A stretch of DNA of 64,000 nucleotides, taken from NCBI RefSeq assembly GCF_024223415.1, contig NZ_CP100500.1. One strand, given 5' to 3'. Origin of the DNA: Escherichia coli (GTDB lineage: Bacteria; Pseudomonadota; Gammaproteobacteria; Enterobacterales; Enterobacteriaceae). Positions within the stretch are counted from its first letter, which is position 1; each line of letters starts with the position of its first letter. Shown here piece after piece: positions 21,708 to 62,195 of this stretch. A program made the translations under genes and the position numbers. A model generated the notes under the pieces. It made no database searches and had not been told where the DNA came from. It saw only the letters and a program-made list of their open reading frames with translations.

Positions 21708-22020
21708 TGATAGTAACTGCGGTAGTACATTTATCCCGGAAATAACCGGAGCGATTATCAGGGTTTAACAATATTAAATACCCGTAGCGCATTACTAGCG
21801 GGCCTAAAACAACAATATGGACATCTTAACGATACTCTGCGCCTGCGTGTGCGGAACAGAAACCCTTACCCGATATACTTGTTATGCCAGAGGTAGCAAT
21901 TGCGTTAGCGGCGTACTGTTGCTGTAAAGTATAACGCCTATATTTTACAGTTCAGTCCTCTTTTGCTTATTACAACCTTAAGTATATCAAGCATATAAAG
22001 ATAATAAGAGACTGAACAAT

Positions 22021-44786: not shown

Positions 44787-47700
44787 GATACTTTTCCTTT
44801 AGTCGGCAACTTTTCTACACCCAGCAGGGTTAGTAACATTGGGTTTATATCCAATGTCATGCGCAGTTTCGAGTTTTCCTGAGCGCGTCCGCTCTCTCGA
44901 TTTTTGGGCTGATAATACTGGTAGTCAGTTTGCAACAGGTTGAGGTAGTGGATCGTGTGATCCACATTATCCTGCCACATCAGATTATTAGGGTTCTGGC
45001 TGTAGGCGACGTTCAGATAGATAAATCGAATACGTTCATAACGGCCTGCCAGCGCCGTCTGGAGCTGTTTCTGCCCCTCAGTATCCGCCTTTTGGCTGGC
45101 GATATTACGGATCTGGCGAATCTTGTTGTCGCTTTTCTCAAGCGTTTCTTCTGCCCGCGTCAAATCGTCCAACTGTGTCGCCCAGCGCTTAACGTCGATG
45201 CAGAGCAGGTCGTCGCCCACTTCAATAAAGCGGTCAAAAAACTCATAGACCAGCGGTTCAAGGCGTTCAAACACCTGCTGGTCGGAGAGTGGGGTAACAC
45301 CATAACTTTTTAGCACTTTATCGAAGAGATATTCACCGACATTGCCTTTGAGCAACGGAACTAGCCTGGGGTTGGGTACCCATTTTTTGAATGCCTTTTC
45401 CTGGATGTTGTCACATTCACGAATCAACTCGCCGACCAGGTTGCCGGGGGTAAAATCGACATCGTTTCTATACTGCGGAAAGAGGGTGAGCTCTGGCCGG
45501 TACTCTCTTGCGCCGCCAGCGAAATCCGACAGGGCGGAATAATCTCTGTGGGCAAGTCCATCCGGGCCGCGTTTGTGGCAAAGTAAAATCGTTTGATTCC
45601 CTTGCTGACGATCGATAAACAGAGCGTCGTGAACAGATTGCATTTGTCGATTGGCGGTATACAAGGGATTAGCCTGGAGTTTTGCCAGCCAGCGCTGGGG
45701 ATCGGTAAAGGAGTCAGGATCGCGGAATAAATTACATATCTCGAGATAATCGAGATTGCCAGCGCGTACCTTATTAATCCAGTCGGTTTTAAGGACACGT
45801 TTGTGAATTTCATCGATGCGGCGACCATTCGCGACGATAGCTTGCTCAAACGTCAGTCGCTGTTCCGCATTATTGAATGACTGGCCCTGACTCAGCTTTT
45901 CGCACTCCTCCATGAGTCGGTGGTTAAGCAAAGACATACTTTCTGATACCACCTCGTTACCGCTATCTTCACTAAGAGCGGCGAACTGAAATGCAACATT
46001 ACGGAACACATCGCGGGGTAAAAAGATTTCTGTTTTCAATAGAGTGTCGCGACGCTCGACTCGCCCTACGGCCTGCACGACGACTTTGAATAAGCTCATA
46101 TCATGTTCGGCCATTAACAGGCGATAGTTTTCGCCGTGGGCGAAATTAACGTTGAAATCGGCCAGCTTGTGGACGGTAATATCGTCATCGGCGTAGTGTT
46201 TAAGCACGGTAACGTAGTTAGGTAATGTATTGAGGTTGCCGCTGTTGTCCTTTACTTCGCTGTAAAACGAGGAGTTGATGAGCACTAAGCGCTCAAAATC
46301 GACATCCAGACGTGGTGCATTGATATCATTAATATCGCCGTCATGGTATTTAACAAAGTAGTTGAGGCCGGTACCCGCACTTTTATAACTGCTCATAAAT
46401 ACCAGTACGGTATTGCTGTTCTGGAGATAGGTTTCTTGCCTGATATCTTCGACATTAGCCAGTGGTGAATCGAAAAAGACCAAATGGACGGTGTGACGCC
46501 CTTTGAATGGGGTAAAGGTCAGGATCTGGTCATGTTTCTTACCGTTATCCGTTTTTTCATCGCACCGGGAGTGCATACCGTACTGCTGACGCCAGGTTGT
46601 CTGGTGCGTGCGCCAGGCGCTGATAAAGGCCCGCTTAAACGTCCCTGAAAGTGACAGAATCAGGCTGTTTTTACCCTCCCAGGCGGCAAGCAGTAACGCT
46701 TCCAGTTCCCGCTGGCACTGACGCCGTTTATAGGTATTTTTCAGGTCGTATTCCAGCGGTTTCTTCAGCGCGTCGAAAAAGTTGTCATACGTCCTGCGAT
46801 AGATTTCACAATTTTGGTAGATATCGGTCAATTTTAACTGCTTATCATCGAACACCCTGAAGTCTACGTTGCGGATACTGGCCCTCAACCCGCGTAATGC
46901 CTTAAGCGTATCGATATCTGCCTTTTCGCGTTCAACGACCCGGTAGCCAAGGTCGCGGCTATAGTGCGCCAGGAAGTGACGATTGAAGTTACCGTTTTTG
47001 GTGTGGCTAAAACCGCTGGTGGCGCTAAGCCCAATTACTTTATTGTGCGTGCCGGTTAATAAACGCAGCAGCATGGCTTCAGGCAACTCTTGTACCAGAT
47101 CCATCTCGAACGCCAGAATAATTGTGCGCTCGGCTCCCCTGTTCACGTAATTGAGTTCAGCTATCGGCGTCATCGTGAATACGGTTTTGGGTTGCAGGTA
47201 AGTGTAGAAATGATCAATCAACAAGTTTTTATCGGTGGTGCGATCGAAGATATGTCGCACCACGCCGGCTACGTTATTGGCTGCGTCAACAAACTGGCCC
47301 AAAGGCGTATTCTGGCTGCTGGAGTTGTCCTGGCCACCATTCTTTACCCAGCGCTTAAAGTGCCGGTTGGTGATTTCAGAACAGGCGGCGAGGATGACGG
47401 AGACCAACTGGAACAGATCGTGCAGAGTGGGGTTGGTGTCATTGGCATCATTTTCGACTTCGTAATACAGTTCGGTGCGCGTTATGTCGCCTTCGCTGTT
47501 GCGCATGCGAATGCGTTTCAGCCCTTCTTCATTGACGTACATTTTGGGGTTAAAGCTGAATACGTTGCGGGTGATTGAGATGATGCGTTCGGCGGCGTCG
47601 CCGTTGACTTCAAATGCCCCTAACTGGTCACGAAACATCTCCAGGATCGATCCCAGCCTTGTACCGGGGGATAGTTCGCACTTTTCCGCCAGTAAATTGC

Positions 47701-49534
47701 GCAGAGTAGTGATGAATTTGACCATCTCTTGCTCAAAGGTCGTTTGCGCTTCTTTGGGCTTGTTTCGGCGTTCTAAGCTGAGTACCGCGTTGTGAATACG
47801 TCCTGCGACGGAAATAACGTGCGCCAGGTTATTTTCCTGTGTGATTAGCTTTACATGGCATGTTTCTTCAAGGCGAGTGTAGGCTTCATGTAGTTCATCA
47901 ATGATCACCGTAAAACGAATATTTTTCTGGCGAAAAGGACAATCTGGATTGCGTCTGAAGTGTTCGTCGCGAAGATAGGTAACCTGCCCGGTATGACCGG
48001 CTGCCGCAACGGTGCTAATCTGTGGATCTTTGGGAGTCAGCTTACCGCCAATCAGCAAGTCGAAACCTACGGACTCAAAACGCACACCTTCGCCTCGCTG
48101 ACGAGGCGCCAGTCGGTAAGTTGATGTGTCGAACTTATTCGTGGTCATTAATAGCACTGACGGGCGGTACTGGCAAACTTCGAAAGGCAATACCTGTTTG
48201 ATAAGCTCGAAATAGACTTCGTGTACGCTTATCTTAGGTTCAAGCTTTCCTGGTTTTCGTGCTGTCTCCGCGTTTTGCATTCGCTCTTGCCGCGCCTGGA
48301 GCCCGCGACGAATGTACTCTTTAATGGAAGCTTTTTCACTATCTGGTCCAAATAGTAATTTACAGGCTGACTCAATCGTATTGCGGATACTGTGACGGCA
48401 GTTTTTTAGCTGTTCTTCGAGAATTTCTCTTTCGTAGTTGGTATCCTGAGAACCGTATGTTGTCAGCTTTTTTAACTGCTCTTCACAGCGATCAATTTGT
48501 AAGACATGATAATTGAGCGAACGAATAGCGCCGCCGATATATTTGCTGCCTTTCGCCCCTTCGTACCACTGAATATAGCTGTCGCGGTTTTTCAGACCAG
48601 AGGCCCAGTCCATAAAGTCGAGGTCGGCAACATCCTTACGGGAGAGAACGCAAATGAACTCGCCGCTAGCGGCCAGAATTTTCTCTTTCTGACTGCTGTC
48701 CAGGTCGATTTGTGATTTTTGCGGTGACATGAATAGCAGGTTGGTAAAGCCACCTTCAGGAAACAGATCGTCTGACTTTTGGGTTTTGGCGAAGCGCTCC
48801 AGATATTCGACATACCCTTGGATCACGCCATAGCTTTTGCCGAACCCCGTGCCGTCGGAACTGAAGATGACCTCAGCGCCATCACGTTCATGCACGTGGT
48901 AAAGTTGAGAGACTTGGGCGCGACAGGCGTTAATCTCTTTAATCAGCGTTATGTCAGGAATTTGCCTAGAGATGAGATCTTGCAGATTATTATTGATATT
49001 TTTCTCTCCAACACGCTCACACTTGCGGTAACTATTGATGGTTATTTGGCCGCTGTCGATCAGAATCTTTTCCACCTGTATGGGGGCAAGATGCAAGGCT
49101 GTCGCGATTTCATTGATAGTATTGGACAGTGGTTCGTGTGGATTGCTAATCGTGAAGTGGTTTAGTGCTGCCGCAACGGTATCTGGATGCAATGCTTTTC
49201 TGAGGGTGGGAAAGGTGAGGCTGTAATCGTATAGCGCCAAATCATTGCTTATCAGGCAGCGAAACAGTTGTTTAGTGGGATCGCCACCAGGACGGCTGGC
49301 AAATCCCAAGATTTTTGCCTGTTCGAGGCGATAAAGCAATGCTGCGGCATCGCGGTCAGGTGAGTCAAATGCATCGTGGAGCTGCTGGCTAAATGGCATT
49401 GTGGCATTCAGCCGGTTATGGCTGACCAGCGCGGAAAAGAGCTGACGCACCAAGGTTAGCAGCTTACAATCTTCCTCTATAGTCCAGCTTTTTCTCATTC
49501 TTCTTCCCCTTAATATAAATGCCCCTGCAACCAC
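44783..49534 (-). CDS. Very large (1583 aa) SF2-helicase-like P-loop NTPase
   Basis: Walker A-like DGTGFGKS, DExH-like Walker B FTVIIDELHEA, SAT-like motif III LSATSGF, motif VI-like QAVGRVERR, spread over large insertions; overlaps upstream helicase gene by ~25 nt. Confidence 0.65.
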   Translation of the reverse strand: MVAGAFILRGRRMRKSWTIEEDCKLLTLVRQLFSALVSHNRLNATMPFSQQLHDAFDSPDRDAAALLYRLEQAKILGFASRPGGDPTKQLFRCLISNDLALYDYSLTFPTLRKALHPDTVAAALNHFTISNPHEPLSNTINEIATALHLAPIQVEKILIDSGQITINSYRKCERVGEKNINNNLQDLISRQIPDITLIKEINACRAQVSQLYHVHERDGAEVIFSSDGTGFGKSYGVIQGYVEYLERFAKTQKSDDLFPEGGFTNLLFMSPQKSQIDLDSSQKEKILAASGEFICVLSRKDVADLDFMDWASGLKNRDSYIQWYEGAKGSKYIGGAIRSLNYHVLQIDRCEEQLKKLTTYGSQDTNYEREILEEQLKNCRHSIRNTIESACKLLFGPDSEKASIKEYIRRGLQARQERMQNAETARKPGKLEPKISVHEVYFELIKQVLPFEVCQYRPSVLLMTTNKFDTSTYRLAPRQRGEGVRFESVGFDLLIGGKLTPKDPQISTVAAAGHTGQVTYLRDEHFRRNPDCPFRQKNIRFTVIIDELHEAYTRLEETCHVKLITQENNLAHVISVAGRIHNAVLSLERRNKPKEAQTTFEQEMVKFITTLRNLLAEKCELSPGTRLGSILEMFRDQLGAFEVNGDAAERIISITRNVFSFNPKMYVNEEGLKRIRMRNSEGDITRTELYYEVENDANDTNPTLHDLFQLVSVILAACSEITNRHFKRWVKNGGQDNSSSQNTPLGQFVDAANNVAGVVRHIFDRTTDKNLLIDHFYTYLQPKTVFTMTPIAELNYVNRGAERTIILAFEMDLVQELPEAMLLRLLTGTHNKVIGLSATSGFSHTKNGNFNRHFLAHYSRDLGYRVVEREKADIDTLKALRGLRASIRNVDFRVFDDKQLKLTDIYQNCEIYRRTYDNFFDALKKPLEYDLKNTYKRRQCQRELEALLLAAWEGKNSLILSLSGTFKRAFISAWRTHQTTWRQQYGMHSRCDEKTDNGKKHDQILTFTPFKGRHTVHLVFFDSPLANVEDIRQETYLQNSNTVLVFMSSYKSAGTGLNYFVKYHDGDINDINAPRLDVDFERLVLINSSFYSEVKDNSGNLNTLPNYVTVLKHYADDDITVHKLADFNVNFAHGENYRLLMAEHDMSLFKVVVQAVGRVERRDTLLKTEIFLPRDVFRNVAFQFAALSEDSGNEVVSESMSLLNHRLMEECEKLSQGQSFNNAEQRLTFEQAIVANGRRIDEIHKRVLKTDWINKVRAGNLDYLEICNLFRDPDSFTDPQRWLAKLQANPLYTANRQMQSVHDALFIDRQQGNQTILLCHKRGPDGLAHRDYSALSDFAGGAREYRPELTLFPQYRNDVDFTPGNLVGELIRECDNIQEKAFKKWVPNPRLVPLLKGNVGEYLFDKVLKSYGVTPLSDQQVFERLEPLVYEFFDRFIEVGDDLLCIDVKRWATQLDDLTRAEETLEKSDNKIRQIRNIASQKADTEGQKQLQTALAGRYERIRFIYLNVAYSQNPNNLMWQDNVDHTIHYLNLLQTDYQYYQPKNRESGRAQENSKLRMTLDINPMLLTLLGVEKLPTKGKVS

Positions 49535-51708
49535 TCCGTCACGCGTTCAATATTAAAAGCACGTAATCCATATTCCTGCGTCAGCAACGTCTCGGGTAAA
49601 TACTCATCATATTTTTCGAGGCACTTTTCAACGATGCTTTCGGCAAGACGGGATTCGTAAGGTAGCCCTTCCTGAAGTGCGCTGAATAACGCTTGTTTAA
49701 CCTCCGAGACCGTAGTTTTTTCTACTTCAACCACACCAGCAAATGAGCCCGCCTTGAAACCGCGTTGGATAAGTAATGCCGACAACGTGTTTACGGTTTG
49801 ATCGCCTAGCCAGGGAAGAATGTAGACATGCTGTCTCTGCTGAATAAAACATTCCGAAGCCAGATTATTGTTGCGAAAACAGTGCAGCCCTTCATCAAAC
49901 AGGTTTTTGGCCGTGGTATCGGCAAAATCGGCCTTGCGATTGCCAACGGTGATGCGGTAGTCGCCTTCCCGATAAATAGTGAGCATTTCTTGGCGGACGA
50001 CATCATGAATGGACATCCCTTGTCCGCCAAATAACGGCGGCTGCCCACCCTTTGTCGCCTCGACATAAATAACTTTTTTATCACTATCGATATCGGTTAC
50101 CTTCCAGCGTCGACCGCCGAAAATAATGTGTTGATCAGGCATCAGTGGGGAATCAACGGGAATGGAGCCCAGTGTTTTGCTCCCCGCCACAATGCGAAAC
50201 TCTTCCGGCGTGCTGAACACGGCGTAGAAGGTGTATTGATTTACCTGACGTTCGCCCTCGACGCCCAGAACCAGTTCGCCGCTTGAGAGCTGGGTCAGAA
50301 ACTGGTGCTCCCCCATATGTTTCAATAACGTTTTGAAGTCATAGATCCGGACTTTCTGAAATGGCCCTTGCAGGCATAGCTGTGACCAGATCTGATCCGC
50401 ACGCACGCCTCCCCACTGCGCCACGATCGCCAGGATCTGATGGAACAGGGTGGAATAGTGCATCTGCCGGGTATCAGCTGGCTCAAACCATTTGTTGCCG
50501 ATAAGTAAGCGGATCATGGCCAGCGACTGAACAAGCTGAAGCCTGAGCTGGTCGACAATGCCTGATGTTGGCGTCAGTTCATGTTCGGCAATCAGCATTC
50601 TCAATACGGCAGGCGAGTCGCGCCGACCGGAGCGTCCCATTCGCTGACGCAGGCTGGCTACGGAATGGGGGGCGGTAACTTGCACAACGGAGCTGACTTT
50701 ACCGATGTCGATGCCAAGCTCTAACGTCATCGTACAGATGGCGGTGGTGGGTAAGTTGCCTTGTTGAAGCCTCTGTTCCAGCGTTTCACGCAGATCTCTG
50801 GACAGAGATCCGTGATGGGGAAAGAACTCATTGGGAACGATGCTCGCTTCACTGAGATCGCTAAGCGTGGCGGCAATGCTTTCGGTCCGTTTGCGACTAT
50901 TAGCGAACACCAGATGGGAATCACCACGACAGAGGCGAAAGATATCATGGCAGATTTGCGTCTCTGCCGACGGTGGAGATTGCTGGCCCGAGGTGGTCAG
51001 CGGTTCCAGATAACCTTTCACCTGTACTTTTAGCGTGGCGTGAGTCTGACTGTCGGTAATAATGTCACAGGGCAGACGTTGATTTGGCCGCAGAGATAAC
51101 GGCACCTGTTCCAGTTCCCCCAGCGTTGCGCTGAGTGCGACTCGGGGGACTGGATTGTTGATTCTTCCCAGCAGGTGATCGACTCGATTTAACAGAGAGA
51201 GAAGCTGCATACCCCGCTCAGAACCGATGAAAGCATGGAATTCATCAATGGCGATATATGCCAGTGGCGCGAAAGCCTGCTTTAACCATCCCGCATTGCG
51301 GATCAGCATCGCTTCCAGCGATTCCGGGGTGATAAGCAAAATACCGGCAGGATTCTTCTTTGCTTTCAGCTTTTTGCTCTGCGCAACATCACCATGCCAG
51401 GGCGTGACCGGCATCTCCAACGCATCACCGAGGTTTTCCAGCCTTCGATACTGATCGTTAATCAGGGCCTTAAGCGGGCTGATGTATAAAATGCCAAAGC
51501 CGCCCTGAATATCCGCAATGGCAGAACAGGCGGGCAGGAAAAACGCTTCTGTTTTACCTGCGGCAGTCGCGGCGCTGATCAGAACATCCCGATCGCCCGC
51601 TAATATCGGTGAAACGGATTTTTTTTGCAGTTCCCTGAGATCGGCCCATCCCTGCCGGTATATCCACTTCTGTATCCGTGGATCCAGCCGCTGGTATTCG
51701 TTCATCAT
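49510..51708 (-). CDS. DEAD/DEAH-box superfamily 2 helicase, Lhr-like
   Basis: 732 aa; Q-motif region, Walker A AATAAGKTEA, Walker B IAIDEFH, SAT-like LSATL, motif VI QRMGRSGRR. Confidence 0.75.
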   Translation of the reverse strand: MMNEYQRLDPRIQKWIYRQGWADLRELQKKSVSPILAGDRDVLISAATAAGKTEAFFLPACSAIADIQGGFGILYISPLKALINDQYRRLENLGDALEMPVTPWHGDVAQSKKLKAKKNPAGILLITPESLEAMLIRNAGWLKQAFAPLAYIAIDEFHAFIGSERGMQLLSLLNRVDHLLGRINNPVPRVALSATLGELEQVPLSLRPNQRLPCDIITDSQTHATLKVQVKGYLEPLTTSGQQSPPSAETQICHDIFRLCRGDSHLVFANSRKRTESIAATLSDLSEASIVPNEFFPHHGSLSRDLRETLEQRLQQGNLPTTAICTMTLELGIDIGKVSSVVQVTAPHSVASLRQRMGRSGRRDSPAVLRMLIAEHELTPTSGIVDQLRLQLVQSLAMIRLLIGNKWFEPADTRQMHYSTLFHQILAIVAQWGGVRADQIWSQLCLQGPFQKVRIYDFKTLLKHMGEHQFLTQLSSGELVLGVEGERQVNQYTFYAVFSTPEEFRIVAGSKTLGSIPVDSPLMPDQHIIFGGRRWKVTDIDSDKKVIYVEATKGGQPPLFGGQGMSIHDVVRQEMLTIYREGDYRITVGNRKADFADTTAKNLFDEGLHCFRNNNLASECFIQQRQHVYILPWLGDQTVNTLSALLIQRGFKAGSFAGVVEVEKTTVSEVKQALFSALQEGLPYESRLAESIVEKCLEKYDEYLPETLLTQEYGLRAFNIERVTEWLQGHLY

Positions 51709-53021
51709 AATCTGAAGTCGGCCAGACCGTCCTCATCGGCATCTTCTGCCGATGTTATTTCATCCATATCACTGGGTTTTTCTTCCGCGATCGCGACACC
51801 GGCGATTAACTGTGACCACTGAATGGATGGGTTTTGTTCCAGCACGGCCAGCATATCCAGGAAGGCTTTAATCGTGTTTCGTGGCGTACGGAAATAGGCA
51901 TCGCCAATAGTGTTGCTACAGTGGCGTAAAAATGCCGTCAGAGCATCATCAGGAACCAGATACTTATCCGCATCGCCGCCGGAATAAACGTGACGAAGGT
52001 TTTTCAACAGAATATAGAGTTCTTCCGGCGTCAGGCTGGCTAAGTGCAGGGAAGGGGACGAATAATCAATGACACCAGCCCGCTGAGCGAAGCTATTTTC
52101 CGCCAGTCGGGACTGGAGCGCTTCGTAGCTGTACAACCCCTTGCGCGGATCGAACAGGAATTCTGGCGTACCGCCAAGTAAAAAACCGATATATTCAGCC
52201 GTCCCTTGCAGGCAGTCATTCAGAATACGCAGTATCTGTTCATAGTTGGCAACGCGGGCCTGAGTGTTACTGAGCTTATACAGATTGACCATCTCATCCA
52301 GATTCACCAGCAGACCCGCGTATCCGGCCTGACGGACAAACAGGCTCATCAGCTTTAGCGAATCGTAGAAAGAGGCATCAGAAATAATGGTGCGCACACC
52401 CAGATCGTTACGGGCGTCGGTTTTCGTGGTGTATTCACCTCTTAGCCAGCGGATGGCATTTGATTTCAATGTCTCATTATCCTGCTCGTGGCCCTGCCAG
52501 TAACATTCAATGACTTTGGCGAAATCGTAACCGCCAACCATATCAGACAGGGCGGCGAGCTTTTGGTGAATAATCGTCGGAACTGACACATTTGTACTTT
52601 CTGCTTCTTTTCTGGCTTCCGTGATAAAGCGCTCAACCACGCTTAATAATGCGTTTCCATCCGGCTTATTTCGGGTGGATAGATTTTTCATTAGCTCGGA
52701 GTAGAGGTTACGCGCCTGCCCACCCGTCGCGTGGATGCGCCTGTCCGGGGATAAATCGGCGCTGATTGTCACCAGCTTTTTTTCTAGCGCAATTGAGCGC
52801 ACAACGCTTAAAAAGAATGTCTTACCTGAGCCATATTCCCCAATAATCAGCCGGAGTCCTGCGCCGCCATCAGCGATACGCTCAATATCCTGATACAGCG
52901 CTTTTATTTCGTTGACCCGGCCAACCTGAATGTGCTGAATACCAATTTTAGGCGTAACACCTGACTTCAGTGACTGAATAATAGCGTCTCTTTCTTTGAG
53001 ACGAATACGAATGCCAGACAT
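51705..53021 (-). CDS. P-loop ATPase (438 aa), BrxD/DUF2791-like
   Basis: Walker A LIIGEYGSGKTF and Walker B-like LLVNLDEM; start 4 nt downstream of the TerB-like gene stop, stop overlaps helicase start. Confidence 0.65.
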   Translation of the reverse strand: MSGIRIRLKERDAIIQSLKSGVTPKIGIQHIQVGRVNEIKALYQDIERIADGGAGLRLIIGEYGSGKTFFLSVVRSIALEKKLVTISADLSPDRRIHATGGQARNLYSELMKNLSTRNKPDGNALLSVVERFITEARKEAESTNVSVPTIIHQKLAALSDMVGGYDFAKVIECYWQGHEQDNETLKSNAIRWLRGEYTTKTDARNDLGVRTIISDASFYDSLKLMSLFVRQAGYAGLLVNLDEMVNLYKLSNTQARVANYEQILRILNDCLQGTAEYIGFLLGGTPEFLFDPRKGLYSYEALQSRLAENSFAQRAGVIDYSSPSLHLASLTPEELYILLKNLRHVYSGGDADKYLVPDDALTAFLRHCSNTIGDAYFRTPRNTIKAFLDMLAVLEQNPSIQWSQLIAGVAIAEEKPSDMDEITSAEDADEDGLADFRL

Positions 53022-53024
53022 AAA

Positions 53025-55352
53025 TTATCCTTTGAGTTCTTGTGCAATTTCCAGGTCAACGTAAATATCATCGTCATCATCAAGCACCGGGGCGTCAACC
53101 TGTTCGAAAGACCAGTCATTAATTGCTTCAATCGCGCCGCTTAGCATCAAATTAAACTGCTGGCATAGCTCAGCGACTTCGTTTCGCGCCCAGCGTTCTT
53201 TTTCCTGCAAACGTTGGTAAAGTTGATGATGTGCTTCATCAAGACCTGCGCCAGCGTGTGGCGGGATCTCCGCTGGGGATTCGTCTGCGGGTTCATCTTC
53301 GGTGAAGATGGTGTTCAGTAACTGGCGTACGTCCGTTGTGTCGGATTCATGACGGGCAAGGATCCGTTCATCAAGAGAAAACGCGCCGCTCGTCGCTGAT
53401 GGGGTTTGTAACGTAGCTGTCGGAGTTGTTTCTGCGGTTGACAGTCGGTGGATATCGCTGGTAACGGCACTGCTGTCCAGACCGAGGCTGGCGTAGATTT
53501 TTTCCAGTTGTTTGATTTCAGCCGGATCGATTTTTCCATCTGCGCAGGCGACGCTGATAATCACGTTGCCAATAGTGGATTTATCTTTATCGCTGAGTTG
53601 CTCAATTTTACCTTTCAGACCAGCCTGATTTGCAGGCGTATTGAGCCGCCAGGTGAGGTAGGCGTGCAGCGAACGTTTTTCTGTTGGCGACAGCGCATCG
53701 TTATGATTAATCGTTTTCTCCAGCGCGGCCTGTTCAGCAACATCCACGCGCTTGTCCATTTGTGCAATCATGGCACCCAACCGAAGCGCCACAGAGACTG
53801 ACGTAAATTCCGCCGACGGTACGTAGAATTCCGCATGCCCTTCAGGAAATAAAACAAGATGACCTTCTGGATCCGGTCTGACAAGGTGATAGCGCATATC
53901 CGGCGCAATGCCGTAGCCTGCTCGCCGGGCGAAATTTTGCATCAGCTCGGCTTCTTTCTTATTAATCTTATCCGGTACAGGCATACCCAGTCTGGCCCAG
54001 AAATCAGCCACTGTCGCCAGTCCTGAATGTTCACGGATTTTCTCATCTGCCCAGTGTTTAAATTCAGCAAATAGACGTTCTGCATCTTCGGTCAGTATTT
54101 CATCGGGAAGCAGCATGATGGCGGCGACATCACTTGGTGAGGCATCTTTTTTACCGAGATAGCGACTGTAGGCATCCAGCGCGTTGATACAGGATTCTGC
54201 AACAGAAATTAATTTCTGAACTGGGGCTTTTAAAACGCTGGGATCGGGAAGATCCATCTGTTTTTTTACCTGAAGTTCCCGAAGCGTACCACTGGCGGGG
54301 GTATAGCTTAAATACAACCGTGTTTTATTGGGTTTGACGACAATACCGTCACCGTATTTTTGAGTATAACGCTGTTTGAATAATGCGGAAAATTCAGCAT
54401 GACATCGACGGGCAGGCGTGCGCAGGGTGTAATCAGGAAAATAGTATATCCATGCCAGTGCCAGAGCGGCACAAATAGGTTGTCCTTTATCGACCACAGT
54501 CGCTAGATTTAATCTGAACAGTAATGAACTCCTCGATGAGAAATATTCGTTTTCGGTATATATAGAAAGCAACTTCGGTCGGAGAACGATCATCATTTCC
54601 AGCAACTGCGTTGCATAATGCCGGAAGGAACCGCTTGCCTGAAATACGGTTCTCAGGCGCGATATCTCTTCGAATAATGCTTTGAATTCATCGTCAGAAA
54701 TGGCTTCTTGTGTGCCATCGGCCAGTACGCGGCGTTCTAGACCGTAAAAATAGATAAAAACATAGCCAACGGGGCAGCTCGCATCGCTGCGATCGCTTGC
54801 CAGCCAGTCAAGATAGGCGCCACGGCAGCGAGGGGAGAGTGTGGCAAAGCTGGGCCAGTATCCCAGTGACTCATCATAATAATGCCGTGAACCAGGCTCG
54901 ATGGGAAAAGCGTCATTAACCAGCGAAGCGTCGGAGTCATCGTTATAAAGATATCCATATTCTCCTGATGAATGTGTTTTTAACCGCCCGCCGAAATAAA
55001 AATAACCGTGATTAATGACGACATTTTGAATGGTGATGCTTTCTCCCGGTTTGACCCATCGCGCTGGAGTGGTATTGCTACGGGCGGCGTTTTCTCGTGA
55101 CGGCTGGCGGCTGGTGCTGTATTCAACCGTCTGCCCGTTCACAAAAGTAAAGGTTGCCAGTTCGTCATCATCGGAGGCCTGAGAATGCATATTTGTCATG
55201 CTGTTATCTGGCTTATTGAGAGATTTCTGTCGAGATGAATGATTTATTTTGGTGATGATTTTGTTGTTTACTCTGGGGGGCGGCGATTTTTTCTTTTTGG
55301 AAAACAGAAGCCAGATAACCGCCAGCATAATAACAAATATCCAGAAGCCCAT
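53025..55352 (-). CDS. Membrane-anchored 775-aa protein with TerB-like C-terminal region; first gene of the operon
   Basis: ATG at 55352; N-terminal TM helix FWIFVIMLAVIWLLF followed by a KKKK stop-transfer; C-terminal block VACADGKIDPAEIKQLEKIYASLGL resembles TerB/DjlA-N-type helical domains. Confidence 0.55.
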   Translation of the reverse strand: MGFWIFVIMLAVIWLLFSKKKKSPPPRVNNKIITKINHSSRQKSLNKPDNSMTNMHSQASDDDELATFTFVNGQTVEYSTSRQPSRENAARSNTTPARWVKPGESITIQNVVINHGYFYFGGRLKTHSSGEYGYLYNDDSDASLVNDAFPIEPGSRHYYDESLGYWPSFATLSPRCRGAYLDWLASDRSDASCPVGYVFIYFYGLERRVLADGTQEAISDDEFKALFEEISRLRTVFQASGSFRHYATQLLEMMIVLRPKLLSIYTENEYFSSRSSLLFRLNLATVVDKGQPICAALALAWIYYFPDYTLRTPARRCHAEFSALFKQRYTQKYGDGIVVKPNKTRLYLSYTPASGTLRELQVKKQMDLPDPSVLKAPVQKLISVAESCINALDAYSRYLGKKDASPSDVAAIMLLPDEILTEDAERLFAEFKHWADEKIREHSGLATVADFWARLGMPVPDKINKKEAELMQNFARRAGYGIAPDMRYHLVRPDPEGHLVLFPEGHAEFYVPSAEFTSVSVALRLGAMIAQMDKRVDVAEQAALEKTINHNDALSPTEKRSLHAYLTWRLNTPANQAGLKGKIEQLSDKDKSTIGNVIISVACADGKIDPAEIKQLEKIYASLGLDSSAVTSDIHRLSTAETTPTATLQTPSATSGAFSLDERILARHESDTTDVRQLLNTIFTEDEPADESPAEIPPHAGAGLDEAHHQLYQRLQEKERWARNEVAELCQQFNLMLSGAIEAINDWSFEQVDAPVLDDDDDIYVDLEIAQELKG

Positions 55353-55535: not shown

Positions 55536-56642
55536 TTATACCTCTGAATCACGCATAAAACGATTGATTTCATCTTGCGCATGACGAAGACGATCGGCAA
55601 TGTCAGCAAATCTGTCAGGCTGATGAAAGAACATTCCCCCTTCCACCGCCGTTTGATGATCCCCGGCGATCGCTGCGAACCGTTCAGCATCGTCAGGCAA
55701 CAGTTGCAGGTTTCCGACAATCACCTGAGTAAAATCCACACCCGGCACAGACCAGCGACGTTGCTTCATCTCGACCACATTGCGCATGGCTTCCAGCGTT
55801 TCATAGGGGCTGGCAAAATGATTACTCAGCAGACAATCCACATCATACCAATGGCGTGCCAGTCGGGCCGGATTTGGCGCTTTGGTTTGCGTGCAGAACT
55901 GGTGCAGCGCCGTCAGCTTTTCCCAAAGAATATAACCGGTGTCATAAGCGTTTACGGTCGCGGTGGGTAACTGGAGTGTATCCATGCCTGCGATCCCGGA
56001 CAGATAGCTTACAACAGGCATCAGATCGGTTGGCTTGCCACGATTTCGTCCGCCAAATTCCAGCAGAATATGATCGCGCTGATAGGCCATACTGTCTTCT
56101 TTCACCCGTGGGAAATAGATATCGACTTTTTCGCCACCACTGTCGGGTTCCATTTTTGCTTCAAGGCCCGGAATTTCATAAGTCTGAAAGCGTTGGTTTA
56201 ACCGTTCTGCCAGCGCGTTTGTCCATTCTGTTAAGCGCTCTTGCTGCTGCTCTCTGAACCGGCGATTCTGGCTGTTATTTAGCGTGCTTTGCTCCCATGC
56301 CTGCTGTTCTTCCTCTTCTGAGTGGCCTGCCAGATCGGCCCAGTGAACAGAAAGATCGATATCTTCAGAAAAACGCTCAATCACGTTCCAGCATTTGCTT
56401 AACGCCGTTCCACCTTTAAACGCGACAGATAAACCTCCCAGCAGCTCCTCATTAAAAAGTAACCGAAGGATCTCCGTTACCCAGAGATCCTTTTCCAGAA
56501 AGCTGGCTCCCAGCCCGGAGGGATGCTGCTGCGCCGCGTAAGAGAGGATTTCCTGAAGCTCGCGACGTTGTGATGCGCTCCGGTAGTAATCAAAAATGTC
56601 CATCAGAGCGCCTTTTGCAACGTTATCAGCTGCGAGCGCCAC
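55536..56642 (-). CDS. AbiEii/AbiGii-family nucleotidyltransferase toxin (type IV TA / abortive infection)
   Basis: 368 aa; nucleotidyltransferase block FKGGTALSKCW...RFSEDIDL; overlaps upstream antitoxin-like gene. Confidence 0.7.
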   Translation of the reverse strand: MALAADNVAKGALMDIFDYYRSASQRRELQEILSYAAQQHPSGLGASFLEKDLWVTEILRLLFNEELLGGLSVAFKGGTALSKCWNVIERFSEDIDLSVHWADLAGHSEEEEQQAWEQSTLNNSQNRRFREQQQERLTEWTNALAERLNQRFQTYEIPGLEAKMEPDSGGEKVDIYFPRVKEDSMAYQRDHILLEFGGRNRGKPTDLMPVVSYLSGIAGMDTLQLPTATVNAYDTGYILWEKLTALHQFCTQTKAPNPARLARHWYDVDCLLSNHFASPYETLEAMRNVVEMKQRRWSVPGVDFTQVIVGNLQLLPDDAERFAAIAGDHQTAVEGGMFFHQPDRFADIADRLRHAQDEINRFMRDSEV

Positions 56643-57262
56643 GCGTGAAGCGCAGGCTCATTCATCAACTTTCCGGCAATCTGCCGTGCTTTAGCGGACG
56701 GGATGCTCAGCCGATGAAAAGCATTCTTCAGCGTTTCCAATGGGGTATGTTGCTGATCCAGACTCAGCAAACCGCGCATCAGCTCTCCTTCAGGCCGGTT
56801 CAGCCAACGTAACCGACTTGCTGATTTATGCTGGATCCGTACCCGCTCATTGCCGACGCGGAATTCTCGCGTAGGGCCGTTTGACCAGTAGATGCGTTTA
56901 ACTGGCGCCTGCGTTTGCAGCCCCAGCCGGTAAGCGGCTTCCAGCCCCTGAAGGGTGATTTTGTAACCACGCTCTTTTGCCCATGCGGCGGCAACGGCAT
57001 TGGCGCTGGCAACAACGTTAACAGAGGGGATGTTTTTCAACGGCTTTGGCCGGGAGTAGAAACCGCGTTCAACCCGGACCAGCAGGCCTTCTTTGACCAG
57101 ACGGCTCATTGCCTGTTGTACCGACGCACGGCTTCCCAGCGAGTAAAACCCGCTGATGGAAAAGGGGATGCCACGCTTCATGCGGTGAACCCGCTGGCGG
57201 GCCAGAGCGGCAACAGACATTGATTCTCCTGTACTGACGTTTTCATTGATATGTATTTTCAT
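56603..57262 (-). CDS. AbiEi-family antitoxin / transcriptional regulator (start uncertain, possibly internal Met near 57220)
   Basis: ~200 aa protein with N-terminal wHTH-like region, overlapping the AbiEii gene start by ~40 nt in the typical AbiEi-AbiEii arrangement. Confidence 0.6.
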   Translation of the reverse strand: MKIHINENVSTGESMSVAALARQRVHRMKRGIPFSISGFYSLGSRASVQQAMSRLVKEGLLVRVERGFYSRPKPLKNIPSVNVVASANAVAAAWAKERGYKITLQGLEAAYRLGLQTQAPVKRIYWSNGPTREFRVGNERVRIQHKSASRLRWLNRPEGELMRGLLSLDQQHTPLETLKNAFHRLSIPSAKARQIAGKLMNEPALHAWRSQLITLQKAL

Positions 57263-57418: not shown

Positions 57419-59614
57419 ATGAGCATTCTCTCCATCCACGGCGTTCGCAGTTATCAGGGCGAAAGGCCAGTGGAGTTCGACTTGAGTAAGTATGTCACTC
57501 TTATCTATGGACAAAACGGCTCAGGAAAATCAACCGTTTCTGGTTACTTTTATAAGCATGGTCGTCCAGATTACAGCCAGTGCAGCCTGCGACCTCCACT
57601 GGATATGAACTACCTGGTGTTTAATCAGGAGTATGTAGACGATATTTTCAGCCAACCTTCTCAGCCGGGCATTTTCACTTTAAATAGTGAAAATGCAGAA
57701 ATTAAAACTGAAATAGATGCTCTGGAAGCGGAGAGTAAAGTTTTGTTTGCCCGGCGTGATGCTTTGGACGTGCAAAAACGCGACGTTGAGGGCATGGAAG
57801 AAAGTATTAAAAATGGCTCCGCAAAACAGATTTATAGTTCTACCGCAGAAATCAGAAAAACAGATTTATGGGATTTGATGTCTGGAACTAAACAGACCGA
57901 CAAACTTTTTCAGACCATCCTTGAACACACTGAAGTCGAAGATACTTCGACGCAGGAATTAACCGAAGAACTACACCGACTTGAAGCCAGTAAAGGCAAC
58001 CCTTACGCTTTGCTCGAAGCATTGCCAGCATCCCCTTTGAATGACAATGATATTGCGCTATTGATGCAACCTCTTATTCCAGCAGGTGATAGCCGTCTTG
58101 CTGCCGCAATTAACCAATTGGGCAACATTGACTGGGTGAGGAATGGACAGCAGTGGCTGAGTGATGACATTTGCCCATTTTGTCAAACGCCGATAGATGC
58201 CCGGCAACTTCAACAGGAAATCACTGCCCTTTTTGATACCTCATGGGAAGCTGCGATGGACCAGTTGCGGGAACTTCAGGCGCGATATCAATTCTGGCAC
58301 GATAAACCCGAACATATGCGGCAGTTAATAAAAACGTGTCCGTTAGTTGATCAGGAACATCCTGTTTATCTCTATCTACTTGAACTGGAGCAGGCGTATC
58401 AAAGAAATAAATTGCATATCGATGAGAAATTGACATCACCCTCTGCGTCGATTGCTGTTGAGGATCTTTCTGCTCTGGCTGGCAATGTCTCTGTGCAGAT
58501 AGCCAGTATTAATACAATAATAAGCGAACATAACCGAAAGGCTGAAAATTATCAGACTGAACGGGTTAGACTGAAACAGAGACTACTCAGTCATATCCGA
58601 AAACTGGCTACCGATACGATAATTAACCATGATGAACAACTAGCAGAACTTGCTGAAAAATTGGCAAAATTAACGGTGTCTCGGGATGAAATTACGGCCC
58701 AGCTTGATACGCTGAACGCAATTATTCGCGGTAAATCCAGCCTGATCGTCAATACGCAGGAAACGATTGAACGTATTAATCACAGCTTGGATAGCCTTGG
58801 AATCACTGGATTCCGCATTGCTCCCTATGACGATCGGGATGATTATCGTCTGGTGAGGGAAGGTGAGAACAGCGATACGCCTGTTTTTAGTAGTCTGAGT
58901 GAAGGGGAAAAGACGCTGATTGCTTTTCTCTATTTTCTGGAGACTTGCACAGGGAGAAAAAGTCGTGATGACAATGACCAACGAAAACGTTTAATTGTCA
59001 TTGATGATCCTATATCCAGCCTGTCGCAAAACTATGTTTTTGAAATAGCATCGTTGATCCAGCATCAGGTTATACGTGCCAGAATTGGTGAGAAAGTGAT
59101 TATTCTGACGCACAGCCTGTTTTTCTTTCAGGAGTTACTGCTTTCTGCGGAACGGAAGAAAAGGGCAGCGGGTTCTTGCCCACCAGAATGGACGCTTTAT
59201 CGGGTATCCAAATCCTTACATAGTTCTGCTTCCCTTGTTTCCGAAAAAGAATTACTGAACGACTATCAGGCACTCTGGTATGTCTTACGCCACGCCCAAA
59301 AAGATGACATTGCCAGTGTGGTGATCCCAAATACGATGCGGCAAATCCTTGAATACTATTTTGGTTTTTCGGGGAAAAGTGAGACGCTTCACCGGGCGCT
59401 TGAAACACTGGCGAGCGGGCCTGAAGGTGAACCTGGTTTCCGTATATTTGCTCGTTATCTAAATCGACATTCTCACCAGGATGCCCGCAATATCTCTCTT
59501 CATGAGGGGGCTTCGGTTGAACGCTATCTTACCTGGTTTAAGAAAGTATTCGAGGCGGCAAAGGATGAAGAGCATTACACATCAATGATGGAAAAGACGA
59601 CACAAACGACCTGA
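57419..59614 (+). CDS. RloC/PrrC-like ABC-type ATPase with coiled-coil zinc hook; candidate anticodon nuclease
   Basis: 731 aa; N-terminal Walker A GQNGSGKST, long predicted coiled coil containing CPFCQ (CxxC hook), Walker B/D-loop LIVIDDPISSLS, C-terminal RQILEYYFGF...H block reminiscent of PrrC/RloC nuclease motif. Confidence 0.55.
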   Translation: MSILSIHGVRSYQGERPVEFDLSKYVTLIYGQNGSGKSTVSGYFYKHGRPDYSQCSLRPPLDMNYLVFNQEYVDDIFSQPSQPGIFTLNSENAEIKTEIDALEAESKVLFARRDALDVQKRDVEGMEESIKNGSAKQIYSSTAEIRKTDLWDLMSGTKQTDKLFQTILEHTEVEDTSTQELTEELHRLEASKGNPYALLEALPASPLNDNDIALLMQPLIPAGDSRLAAAINQLGNIDWVRNGQQWLSDDICPFCQTPIDARQLQQEITALFDTSWEAAMDQLRELQARYQFWHDKPEHMRQLIKTCPLVDQEHPVYLYLLELEQAYQRNKLHIDEKLTSPSASIAVEDLSALAGNVSVQIASINTIISEHNRKAENYQTERVRLKQRLLSHIRKLATDTIINHDEQLAELAEKLAKLTVSRDEITAQLDTLNAIIRGKSSLIVNTQETIERINHSLDSLGITGFRIAPYDDRDDYRLVREGENSDTPVFSSLSEGEKTLIAFLYFLETCTGRKSRDDNDQRKRLIVIDDPISSLSQNYVFEIASLIQHQVIRARIGEKVIILTHSLFFFQELLLSAERKKRAAGSCPPEWTLYRVSKSLHSSASLVSEKELLNDYQALWYVLRHAQKDDIASVVIPNTMRQILEYYFGFSGKSETLHRALETLASGPEGEPGFRIFARYLNRHSHQDARNISLHEGASVERYLTWFKKVFEAAKDEEHYTSMMEKTTQTT

Positions 59615-61132
59615 TTAACAACAGAAGAGGACCATCACCCCGGGATTAACCGTTAGCAGTTCGGCAAAGAGCGCATGTGCTGGCACACGTGCTCCCAGCG
59701 ACCAAAACGGAAACGCAGATACTGGTGAACCAGCACAGTTTTCTGTTTCATACCGGGCTCCTTTCTTTCGACGCCGACAAGCTGTCGGCGAGCCCCGTAC
59801 ACCTCGTACGAGCGTGACTATCGTGTAGAGGCTAAGGATCCCGGGGGATGGCTTCCGCTATCGTAGGCGATTTCATTTGATGATTCAATCTTTGCTTTGG
59901 ATAACAATTAATTGAGATGGTCGTATTTTAGTATTAGCACTGTATGTCTTAGCTATAGTGCTGCTGAAATGACCAATTCGGGAACCGTGATGGTTTCCTG
60001 GAAACTCTCTTGCTTATTTTACGATGCTGGCCGATTATCACAAAACGTTGCTTAAACGCTGATTGGATATGGTGCTTTGTGGCAGTCATTCGCTTGTCTG
60101 ACGTTGCCATGGCTTACATTTGATGTAGCCAATGTAGAAGCCGCTTGGTGAATTGTTCTATGACATGGTCTACTACTTCGTTGTGGAAAATGAAGATGCG
60201 GTACCGGGTATGTACCATTGATGGTGAGAGGCTTATCGACGAATGGACCGTACGATATTGCTTGGCTGGAAAGGTGTGTGAAGCATTGTAGATTTACATT
60301 CACAAAATCGCGAGAAAATCTACAAACAACTCTATTTCCAGAAAAATGAGTTTCCCCTTTCTGCGCCAGAAATAAAGGCGTAATCTCCCTCCTGCACTAT
60401 GTTGTCGTGGACAACTCCCTTGCTTCATGGTCTGCAAGAAGCCCCTGATTTATCAGGATGACCAGCCCTTTCTACCGGTACGACCTCCGCAATACCGGAA
60501 CGCGAAAGCGTTTGAGGCTAAGAGTACATACACATGAACGGCTCCATCGTCATCGCTTAACGGCAACAGCCTTCACCGGCTGAACGGCCTCTCTTTGCCG
60601 GAATTTTCCTGGCCCACTTATACCCTGCTGATAACCAGCGCCTTTTTACATGACGGGCTGCGGCCTGCATTGCCGAAGGCTTTGCTGCCGCGTGACCGTC
60701 ATCCTGCACCAGAGTGTTAATTTTCAGACCCTGCGCCAGACCAGGGCGTCAGTCGCTCACGCGCAGTGAGAGACTGACGCCCGCAGAAATTTCCATCTGC
60801 ACCAGTCATATCAACTGTTCCAGCCACAGGCGAGCTTCTGACGTCGCTTTTCAGCATTTATCTCAACCATTCATTCACAAAAGGAGAACATGAGCCAGTA
60901 CCGGAGGAGGACCACCAGGACGGTCCGGGGGATGACCAGCTCACGCTGGCGGCTGCTCTGAGAGCACAACCGATACCCCGCAAAACCTCAACAGCCGTCG
61001 CCCCGGCGCTCAGGTACTGCTCGCAGCCCCGACAAAAATCAGGGGCTATCGGCCTACGCGCCGGGGAAAGCTGTATCCGTTGTTTGTTGTGGTTTTGTGA
61101 AAATCAGGAGCGAGAGAAGAGGAAAACGTAAA

Positions 61133-62014
61133 ATGGGTATGCTGGAAAGAGAGATGAAAAACCTGGCGCGGCAGGCTGGCGGGTCGCACAAGACTGTCCA
61201 TGACCGTATCGCCATGGCAGGACGTTTCTGCGAACGCCTGATGGAACTGAACGTTCAGATACGCTATGTCCACCATTTAAAGGCGAAGCATATTGAGGCG
61301 TATATTCAGATGCGGCTGGCGCAGGGGATTCAGAAAAATACGCTGCATAACGAAACGGCGGCTATCCGTAAAATCCTGACGCAGGCCGGGCGCGAAAAGC
61401 TGGCGCAGAGTGAACGGATATCGAATAAATCGCTGGGGCTGGCTGGCGTATCCCGCAATGGTACGCGGAAAGCCATCACGCCGGAATATTATCAACAGAT
61501 GGCAGAGGCTGCCCGGCTGAAAGATGCGGGGCTGGCGGCGGCGCTGGAACTGACGCGGCTGATGGGGCTACGCTCTCAGGAGGCAGTACGCTGTTCCGGT
61601 TCGCTGAAAACCTGGCGCGAAGCACTGGAGAAAGGTGATACCCGGCTAACCGTGGTACTCGGTACCAAAGGTGGACGGCCCCGTGACACGATTATTCAGG
61701 ATACTGGCGCAGTTAAACAGGCGCTGGATAAGGCCATCGTGGTGGCAGAACGGCGCAACGGCAGGCTGATTGATGCGGCGAGCCTTAAACAGGCAATGAA
61801 ATACTGGCGCAACCAGACTTTGCGTATGGGGCTGACGGGCAAATACTCCCCGCACTCACTGCGCTACGCCTGGGCGCAGGACGATATCTGCCGGTATCTG
61901 GCGCAGGGGTTCAGCGAAAAAGAAGCGCTGGCGATGGTGGCAATGGACCTAGGGCATGGCGACGGGCGTGGTCGCTGGGTGAAGCAGGTGTATGCACGGA
62001 ATGATGAAGCGTGA
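61133..62014 (+). CDS. Small tyrosine-recombinase/integrase-like protein
   Basis: ATG at 61133 preceded by a GAGG RBS; C-terminal HSLRYAWAQ box and RGR region resemble catalytic boxes of phage integrase family; unusually short. Confidence 0.45.
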   Translation: MGMLEREMKNLARQAGGSHKTVHDRIAMAGRFCERLMELNVQIRYVHHLKAKHIEAYIQMRLAQGIQKNTLHNETAAIRKILTQAGREKLAQSERISNKSLGLAGVSRNGTRKAITPEYYQQMAEAARLKDAGLAAALELTRLMGLRSQEAVRCSGSLKTWREALEKGDTRLTVVLGTKGGRPRDTIIQDTGAVKQALDKAIVVAERRNGRLIDAASLKQAMKYWRNQTLRMGLTGKYSPHSLRYAWAQDDICRYLAQGFSEKEALAMVAMDLGHGDGRGRWVKQVYARNDEA

Positions 62015-62195
62015 TTTTTTGCTGGCGCAGCGAAAGGAAAAAGGCCAAAGGGTAAAGGTGGGTTAAGGGTAACAGCTCCTTACCGGAAAGGGCCAAAGGG
62101 TTGGGACTGGCGCAGATCGACGTCTATCCACGGATATCTGGCGCAAATAAAAAGCAGATCCCTGATGCAGTGGATCTGCTTTCCGGCATTGTCCG

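Follow-up and report, generated by a model that had tools for sequence, protein, structure and literature searches.

In a 64,000-nucleotide (nt) stretch of Escherichia coli DNA (contig NZ_CP100500.1 of assembly GCF_024223415.1; the whole stretch is called the window), a gene for a protein with the tyrosine-recombinase fold converges on the integrase gene of a genomic island. The gene, 61133..62014 on the + strand, encodes 293 aa in two domains, an N-terminal SAM-like core-binding domain (PF12834) and a catalytic domain (PF12835), and is MpsA-like and probably of the 'MOB_M' type. A long non-coding region 5′ of it carries a conserved hairpin and the structured EFASI motif. The protein could well be a relaxase-like enzyme of mobilization, with an origin of transfer (oriT) region of its own, and not the integrase of the island.

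The gene and its product

A preliminary description of this DNA had taken the gene from 61097. The longest open reading frame does run from 61097 to 62014 on the + strand, and its translation from a GTG gives 305 aa. In RefSeq (PGAP) and in all homologues, the start is at ATG 61133 and the product is the 293-aa WP_000525605.1, labelled 'integrase domain-containing protein'. A Shine Dalgarno-like GAGGAAAA is 8 nts 5′ of this ATG, which to judge from the sequence is most likely the true start. The 5′ extension of the longest frame (61097..61132, + strand) is not conserved and contains the GAGGAAAA. It is probably untranslated leader outside the protein.

The Pfam matches, numbered on the 305-aa frame, are to PF12834 at residues 13-103 (118 bits, E 2.4e-34) and to PF12835, Integrase_1, at residues 114-262 (196 bits, E 3e-58). 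The phage integrase family PF00589 stays below its gathering score in the protein (15.0 bits vs 27.1). A search for it had been proposed in the preliminary description, and what was found is its sister family PF12835, which has been placed in the DNA_BRE_C superfamily (PMC8371274). The NCBIfam equivalog models for XerC and XerD are not reached either (TIGR02224, 21.1 bits vs 335; TIGR02225, 14.0 vs 330). No arm-type DNA-binding domain was found in the protein, neither PF13356 nor a related match, just as had been proposed at the outset, while the adjoining integrase has PF13356. That integrase is of the P4/CP4 type of island integrases, which belong to the same superfamily. Compared with them the product of 61133..62014 is without PF13356 and Phage_int_M, is ~120 aa shorter and falls in another Pfam family.

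The RKHRHY active site is complete. R147, K179, H241, R244, H275 and Y287, with codons at 61571, 61667, 61853, 61862, 61955 and 61991 respectively, are 98-100% conserved in 108 diverse relatives (the nucleophilic Tyr287 in 99%), and the same level is found among these representatives for the family-specific R108, E150 and R184. The HSLRY box and RGR region that had first drawn attention to the protein are part of this site: the former is H241-S-L-R244-Y245 (61853-61867), and in the latter, G274-H275-G-D-G-R-G-R (61952-61975), the RGR follows the catalytic histidine. Relative to XerC/XerD, Cre and XerH there is a 3-residue insertion between H275 and Y287. The protein ends 6 residues after Tyr287, and 6 residues is also the median length of this tail in the family. 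In Cre, XerD and lambda Int a C-terminal segment is exchanged between subunits in the recombination tetramer; because its tail after the catalytic tyrosine is so short, the family has no such segment.

Support for the integrase fold comes from structure comparison. An AlphaFold2 model from 110 sequences has a predicted local distance difference test score (pLDDT) of 97.2, and Foldseek aligned both of its domains with XerA, lambda Int 75-356, XerH, IntI4, Tn1549 Int and Cre in the PDB, with E down to 1e-5 and template modelling (TM) scores of 0.55-0.64 for most and ~0.4 for XerA. A sequence search of the PDB with the single protein gave no match, and with the family profile the top match was XerA at E 0.003; no close relative with a solved structure was found in these sequence searches.

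The protein had been thought unusually short. Simple two-domain tyrosine recombinases, such as XerC/XerD, are typically of ~290 aa, and the family itself is uniform in length. Its 834 clusters at 50% identity have representatives mostly of 285-320 aa that align end-to-end, and its 1508 matches among 90%-identity clusters are mostly from Enterobacterales and of 289-295 aa. As judged from sequence and model, the protein is a catalytically complete, arm-less, two-domain enzyme of the tyrosine-recombinase fold and of normal size for its class. The ratio of nonsynonymous to synonymous substitution rates (dN/dS) against seven homologues is 0.16-0.31. The gene is not a relic, since this ratio denotes purifying selection. 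The segment 60500-63600 is 99.8-99.9% identical to ~20 complete E. coli genomes, and the gene with its upstream region is matched in ~840 of 5426 such genomes (15%); the family is also very abundant in Salmonella.

The conserved non-coding region 5′ of the gene

Among related islands, DNA similarity starts ~800 bp 5′ of the start codon and stops at the stop codon. In the window the conserved upstream block begins at ~60293 and has within it a degenerate STAXI-like segment (60400..60545, + strand), which at 18.2 bits is below the RF01728 gathering score of 40.5. Full STAXI elements are at the same relative position in three other loci described below (L015, L019 and L020). Further 3′, at 60652..60698, is a nearly invariant 47-nt block, GACGGGCTGCGGCCTGCATTGCCGAAGGCTTTGCTGCCGCGTGACCG. 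It is kept between loci of E. coli, Klebsiella and Serratia even though protein identity there is only 61-73% and the flanking intergenic DNA has diverged.

Just 3′ of this block is a GC-rich hairpin (inverted repeat I1, 60743..60783), 350-390 bp 5′ of the start codon, with an invariant base, GCGTCA(C)...(G)TGACGC. Of 12 loci examined, 10 have it, and it was subsequently found in L019 and L020 too. Its stem is of 12 bp, and in 7 distinct sequences 94% of the alignment cells are paired, with compensatory changes at 5 pairs, a level of covariation reached by none of 500 shuffles. From its sequence it is a candidate for the relaxase-binding or nic-proximal repeat of an oriT.

The hairpin is bracketed by three direct copies of a 9-mer, CTGCRCCAG, on the + strand at 60704, 60731 and 60797 (60704..60805), the two 5′ of it being 27 nts apart; a fourth copy is at 60361. 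There are 20 copies in the window vs 1.35 expected, 11 of them within 1.85 kb (60361-62208), and the 9-mer is ~30-fold enriched around the gene. Their orientation switches. The four upstream of the gene are on the + strand, and the seven inside or downstream of it (61316-62208) are inverted, an arrangement repeated in five other loci. Some copies within the gene encode Leu-Ala-Gln; those that are intergenic need another explanation. An inverted pair with a 5-bp spacer is present ~700-750 bp upstream in two related loci, L006 and L010, and in degenerate form in the window and L004.

The EFASI motif (Rfam RF02957) is at 60890..61023 on the + strand, 110 nts 5′ of the start codon, and is matched over its full length (112.7 bits vs a gathering score of 51.2, E 1e-23). 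Nine other loci carry the gene with enough DNA 5′ of it to look for EFASI, and in each the motif is just 5′ of the homologous gene, at 60-122 bits and down to 41% protein identity. Its outer stem covaries, and the alignment folds on either strand with similar support (-17.2 vs -15.2 kcal/mol). In the Rfam description EFASI follows STAXI and precedes integrase genes, with no function assigned (PMC12370729); STAXI, as Rfam is quoted in the same paper, may function as single-stranded DNA. Searching the literature for 'STAXI' brought up psychology papers only. The window agrees with the Rfam account in having a full-score EFASI upstream of an 'integrase' gene. It differs in that the neighbouring gene is identified as PF12835/MpsA-like, in the extra conserved hairpin between STAXI and EFASI, and in the degeneracy of the STAXI-like stretch 5′ of EFASI.

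A conserved 3′ segment of EFASI, CCCCGGCGC (61001-61014), can pair with GCGCCGGGG (61053-61066), 40 nts downstream. The pairing encloses a small hairpin, is followed by a T-rich tract and is kept in most loci (with G-U in L012); an alternative leader structure is possible. Taken as a whole, the leader has no unusual stability as RNA (z = -1.0), and in 60200-62250 no sigma-70 promoter-like site was found and the excess of terminators was not convincing. A 23-aa open reading frame from ATG 60890 and a 59-aa one at 60714-60893, which overlap EFASI, were rejected as genes on the ground that their length or frame is not conserved in other loci. A 178-bp fragment matching 60490-60667 of the window occurs alone and unannotated at 7001-7174 of L007 and in several hundred other E. 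coli genomes. It was considered as an independent oriT and rejected: it breaks off just inside the conserved block and is a relic of a lost module.

The same order of elements is found outside small islands. In the integrative and conjugative element (ICE) of MPF_G type at pheV of E. coli MS1170 (L020), the order is mating-pore operon, STAXI, hairpin, EFASI, a gene whose PF12834+PF12835 product is 49% identical to the protein from the window, a second STAXI, anti-restriction and ArdC genes, a TraI-domain protein, integrase and tRNA-Phe. The resemblance to the window extends to the hairpin-EFASI-gene order and the pheV target. The difference is that the ICE has a full STAXI on both sides, the mating-pore operon, TraI and the anti-restriction/ArdC genes, while the island in the window has the gene, the degenerate STAXI-like stretch and defence cargo. 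The second STAXI of L020 (15753-15908), directly 3′ of the PF12835 gene and 5′ of the anti-restriction and ArdC genes, recalls the single-strand elements of leading regions. In L015, a fragment of a metagenomic ICE, the STAXI-hairpin-EFASI-gene order is repeated beside a TraG_N gene. In the tellurite/urease TAI island of E. coli O157:H7 (L019 7003-7783) the module, with STAXI at 134 bits, the hairpin at 7406-7444 and EFASI at 48.9 bits, is present without any PF12835 gene, and IS66 fragments follow it. TAI islands have been classed as oriT-only hitchers, and their oriT is said to have 60% identity to that of SGI-4, an ICE with a MOB_M gene whose oriT was localised by experiment (preprint 10.64898/2026.01.13.699239). 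By this route the upstream module would be tied, indirectly, to the SGI-4/TAI oriT.

Kinship to MpsA and the function of the protein

The nearest characterised relative of the protein is MpsA (S020) of the integrative mobilizable island SGI1. SGI1 requires both MpsA and MpsB for transfer and has its oriT upstream of mpsA (PMC6414798). The TraI of the helper, unlike MpsA, is dispensable for that transfer (PMC6414798). Between oriT and mpsA an essential small RNA, sgm-sRNA, is encoded (PMC9299015). The recombination of SGI1 is the work of its own int/xis (PMC8409611), and PF12835 has been taken as the signature of MpsA-type proteins (PMC10484663).

A search of complete E. coli genomes with the published mpsA primer did not find SGI1. 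Representative genomes were then scanned with a degenerate pattern for the first nine mpsA codons, and an SGI1-type mpsA-mpsB pair was recovered from Rheinheimera nanhaiensis contig NZ_BAFK01000015 (L002 508-1773). The first nine codons of its mpsA are those of the published primer, the tyrosine is at 319, and its mpsB begins MEKWVRERS. At the primer sites checked, this mpsA-mpsB pair and oriT region from a marine Rheinheimera are almost identical to those of Salmonella SGI1. The Rheinheimera MpsA reaches PF12835 (43 bits vs a cut-off of 23) and not the threshold of PF12834, which the protein from the window does reach. BLASTP aligns the two over both domains (24% identity, E 3e-7, residues 21-276 vs 40-311). 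In hhalign of the family profile with MpsA (98.7%, E 2e-16), the N-terminal domain is included and all six catalytic residues align.

The likeness goes beyond the protein. In both cases the tyrosine is a few residues from the C-terminus, the gene is part of an integrative island that has a separate integrase, and a GC-rich, hairpin-containing region ~300-450 bp upstream is separated from the gene by a structured RNA element (PMC6414798, PMC9299015). The minimal oriT of the SGI1-type element extends from about -428 to -305 relative to the mpsA start, and the hairpin in the window from -390 to -350. EFASI sits in the position of sgm-sRNA, a parallel of position only, with no sequence similarity. 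A 2026 preprint (10.64898/2026.01.13.699239) reports MOB_M as the commonest relaxase type on the chromosomes of E. coli, Salmonella and Klebsiella. It finds MOB_M proteins often labelled as integrases, with 96% adjoining an integrase, and sets them in MPF_G ICEs or relaxase-only islands. The locus in the window would fit this picture in its integrase neighbour and as a relaxase-only island, and the 'MOB_M' gene of SGI-4 probably encodes another PF12834+PF12835 protein of the L020 type.

A mobilization enzyme of this kind would act as follows. The P4-type integrase would have inserted the island (41120-63648) at pheV. The MpsA-like protein would bind the region ~330-480 bp 5′ of its own gene, where the 47-nt block, the CTGCRCCAG repeats and the GCGTCAC hairpin are. 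One strand would be nicked through Tyr287, and the DNA passed on to a helper's type IV secretion system. The helper of SGI1 is an IncA/IncC plasmid, while here it is probably an MPF_G-type ICE, the carrier of the 49%-identical copy of the module being the most plausible. EFASI would be a required or regulatory RNA, like sgm-sRNA, or a structured leader. There is precedent for the underlying concept, a tyrosine-recombinase-fold protein at an oriT, in MobK of pIGRK, whose nicking depends on the catalytic tyrosine (PMC8152469), and in TcpM of pCW3. These are described as being without a core-binding domain, which the protein from the window has. No direct sequence relationship to either was found, though no search was aimed at one.

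This reading of the protein is held at about even strength, and several points count against it. A complete RKHRHY set and a core-binding domain would be required equally by a working recombinase. MpsA, the closest relative with an experimentally established role, is only 24% identical, and its own nic site has not been mapped (PMC6414798). The seed accessions for MOB_M in the preprint are not among the family cluster members listed. No MpsB homologue was found by tblastn in the window or in seven related loci, nor is there any open reading frame in the 181-bp spacer downstream of the gene (MpsB does weakly resemble the N-terminal domain of the family). Between the region upstream of the gene and the SGI1-type oriT/sRNA region, blastn found only chance 9-10-mers and no DNA similarity, and the latter region has no match to the Rfam EFASI and STAXI models. 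Finally, L020 encodes a TraI-type (MOB_H-like) relaxase besides the MpsA-like protein, and the TraI-type relaxase of SGI-4 is ORF86 (PMC6543542). Since a TraI-type relaxase is there as well, the gene is not needed as sole relaxase in MPF_G ICEs.

That EFASI, STAXI and the GCGTCAC hairpin belong to the oriT/mobilization-control region of a widespread PF12835 (MOB_M-type) module, common to MPF_G elements and small hitch-hiking islands, with EFASI as the counterpart of sgm-sRNA, is put forward somewhat more tentatively than the function of the protein. The protein belongs to an already known PF12835/MpsA-like family, probably that of 'MOB_M'. The connection of the three elements to the mobilization module was not made in the literature searched and may be the part that is new.

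The presence of TraI in these ICEs also suggests another conjugation-linked role. The protein might be an accessory that binds oriT and recruits the helper's TraI-type relaxase, or a leading-region enzyme, made early in the recipient, by which the incoming strand is rejoined, resolved or processed in another way, with STAXI and EFASI as single-strand DNA elements (single-stranded promoters or priming sites). The gene order of L020 is in keeping with this, since a second STAXI comes after the gene, and after that the anti-restriction and ArdC genes, typical of leading regions, with the TraI-domain relaxase elsewhere in the ICE. So are the single-stranded action that Rfam, as quoted above, allows for STAXI, and the nearly equal folding of EFASI on its two strands. 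Such a role is nevertheless considered rather unlikely. It is MpsA and not the helper's TraI that, in the account cited, SGI1 needs; accessory binding would not require a fully conserved active site with its nearly invariant tyrosine; and small islands, such as that in the window, carry no TraI of their own.

No greater likelihood attaches to a conventional Xer/Cre-like recombinase acting on double-stranded DNA, whether in resolving multimers or cointegrates of the excised island, in inversion, or as a second integrase. The protein shares with XerC/XerD, Cre and XerH a length of ~290-340 aa, the core-binding and catalytic fold and RKHRHY, and its TM scores of 0.55-0.64 are to the lambda Int core, XerH, IntI4 and Cre. 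The opposite orientations of CTGCRCCAG on the two sides of the gene, and the inverted pair with a 5-bp spacer in L006 and L010, could be recombination sites, and some family members are on plasmids, where resolution enzymes are common. Yet it differs from those recombinases in its sub-threshold PF00589 score, its 3-residue insertion and in having almost no tail after the tyrosine with which to make subunit contacts in a synaptic tetramer. The Xer equivalog models give it 14-21 bits against cut-offs of ~330, and the window and L004 have only a degenerate form of the inverted core-like site. It is always accompanied by another integrase. A dedicated one is present in all eight chromosomal island and ICE loci with readable flanks, and because of this co-occurrence an integration role for the protein would be redundant. 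A 14-kb Burkholderia plasmid with a gene of the family encodes a canonical recombinase as well. MpsA, the closest relative to have been characterised, is required for transfer, and recombination in SGI1 is left to its int/xis (PMC8409611).

Recombination directionality factors are small DNA-binding proteins without a tyrosine-recombinase fold or full active site. The earlier suggestion that the protein is a non-catalytic factor of that or a regulatory kind, or else the decaying relic of another element, might seem encouraged by the broken integrase next to it, by an island that looks immobilised and by the generic labels in the family ('DNA-binding protein' as well as 'integrase domain-containing protein'), but is highly improbable for a gene that is under purifying selection, intact and nearly identical in ~20 E. 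coli genomes, has catalytic residues conserved at 98-100% among relatives, belongs to a family of 834 clusters of uniform length, and is found in constant company with a cis-acting module.

The island and its consequences

Two remnants of the pheV tRNA 3′ end, both on the - strand, bound a 22.5-kb island at 41120-63648 of the window. The left one (41120..41142) matches the 3′ end of tRNA-Phe at 21 of 23 positions, with 0 such matches expected by chance. The right one, tggtgccggactcggaatcgaa (63627..63648), has a 1-nt deletion and adjoins the integrase. This P4-type integrase (62196-63502, - strand), with Arm-DNA-bind_3, Phage_int_M and Phage_integrase domains, is convergent with and 182 bp downstream of the MpsA-like gene, as the preliminary placing of the latter on the opposite strand implied. 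This is the island's actual integration enzyme. A frameshift near 63044-63047 has inactivated it and leaves two open reading frames with complementary Pfam halves; PGAP labels it 'frameshifted'. Between the convergent genes a perfect 11-bp hairpin (inverted repeat I5, 62151..62182) is likely, from its sequence, to be a bidirectional terminator.

The cargo is for defence: Shango SngA, SngB and SngC (53025-55352, 51705-53021 and 49510-51708), AbiEi and AbiEii (56603-57262 and 55536-56642) and a PDC-S06 AAA_13 ATPase (57419-59614). Adjoining the Shango genes, on the - strand at 42555-49534, are two large open reading frames, of 743 and 1583 aa, with no Pfam or PADLOC match. Among the remaining frames of the island no match to any known family of relaxases or mating-pore proteins was found.

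A backbone that includes the MpsA-like gene is common to sister islands in E. coli, Klebsiella, Serratia and Pectobacterium. It has, in order, the C4 and isrK RNAs, genes for a 153-aa and an HTH_35 protein, a non-coding stretch of 0.6-0.9 kb, the MpsA-like gene, the convergent integrase and the tRNA. Where sisters with the same cargo have isrK, C4 and the 153-aa and HTH_35 genes (L005 9001-10353, L010 4787-6139), the corresponding 678 bp of the window (59615-60292) are mostly unrelated, which suggests that its copy has lost a regulatory or immunity module. Because the integrase is frameshifted and this module is missing, the island can probably no longer excise; its mobilization gene and cis region are intact.

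Three further features of the surrounding DNA are recorded. A second island, with an EAL-domain gene, a CbtA/CbeA module and ireA, is in tandem beyond the window. The Rfam C0719 RNA (299 bits) is at 21721-21942 (- strand) in the core-genome part of the window, and isrN (72 bits) is at 42025-42161 (+ strand), inside or adjoining an IS3 element at the left end of the island.

For annotation, the gene is not to be counted as a second integrase when mobile elements are delimited. If the mobilization reading is correct, genes labelled 'integrase domain-containing protein' beside the integrases of tRNA islands would mark islands movable by conjugation. That would explain how defence and virulence islands spread without a recognisable relaxase, and would give EFASI and STAXI a concrete function.

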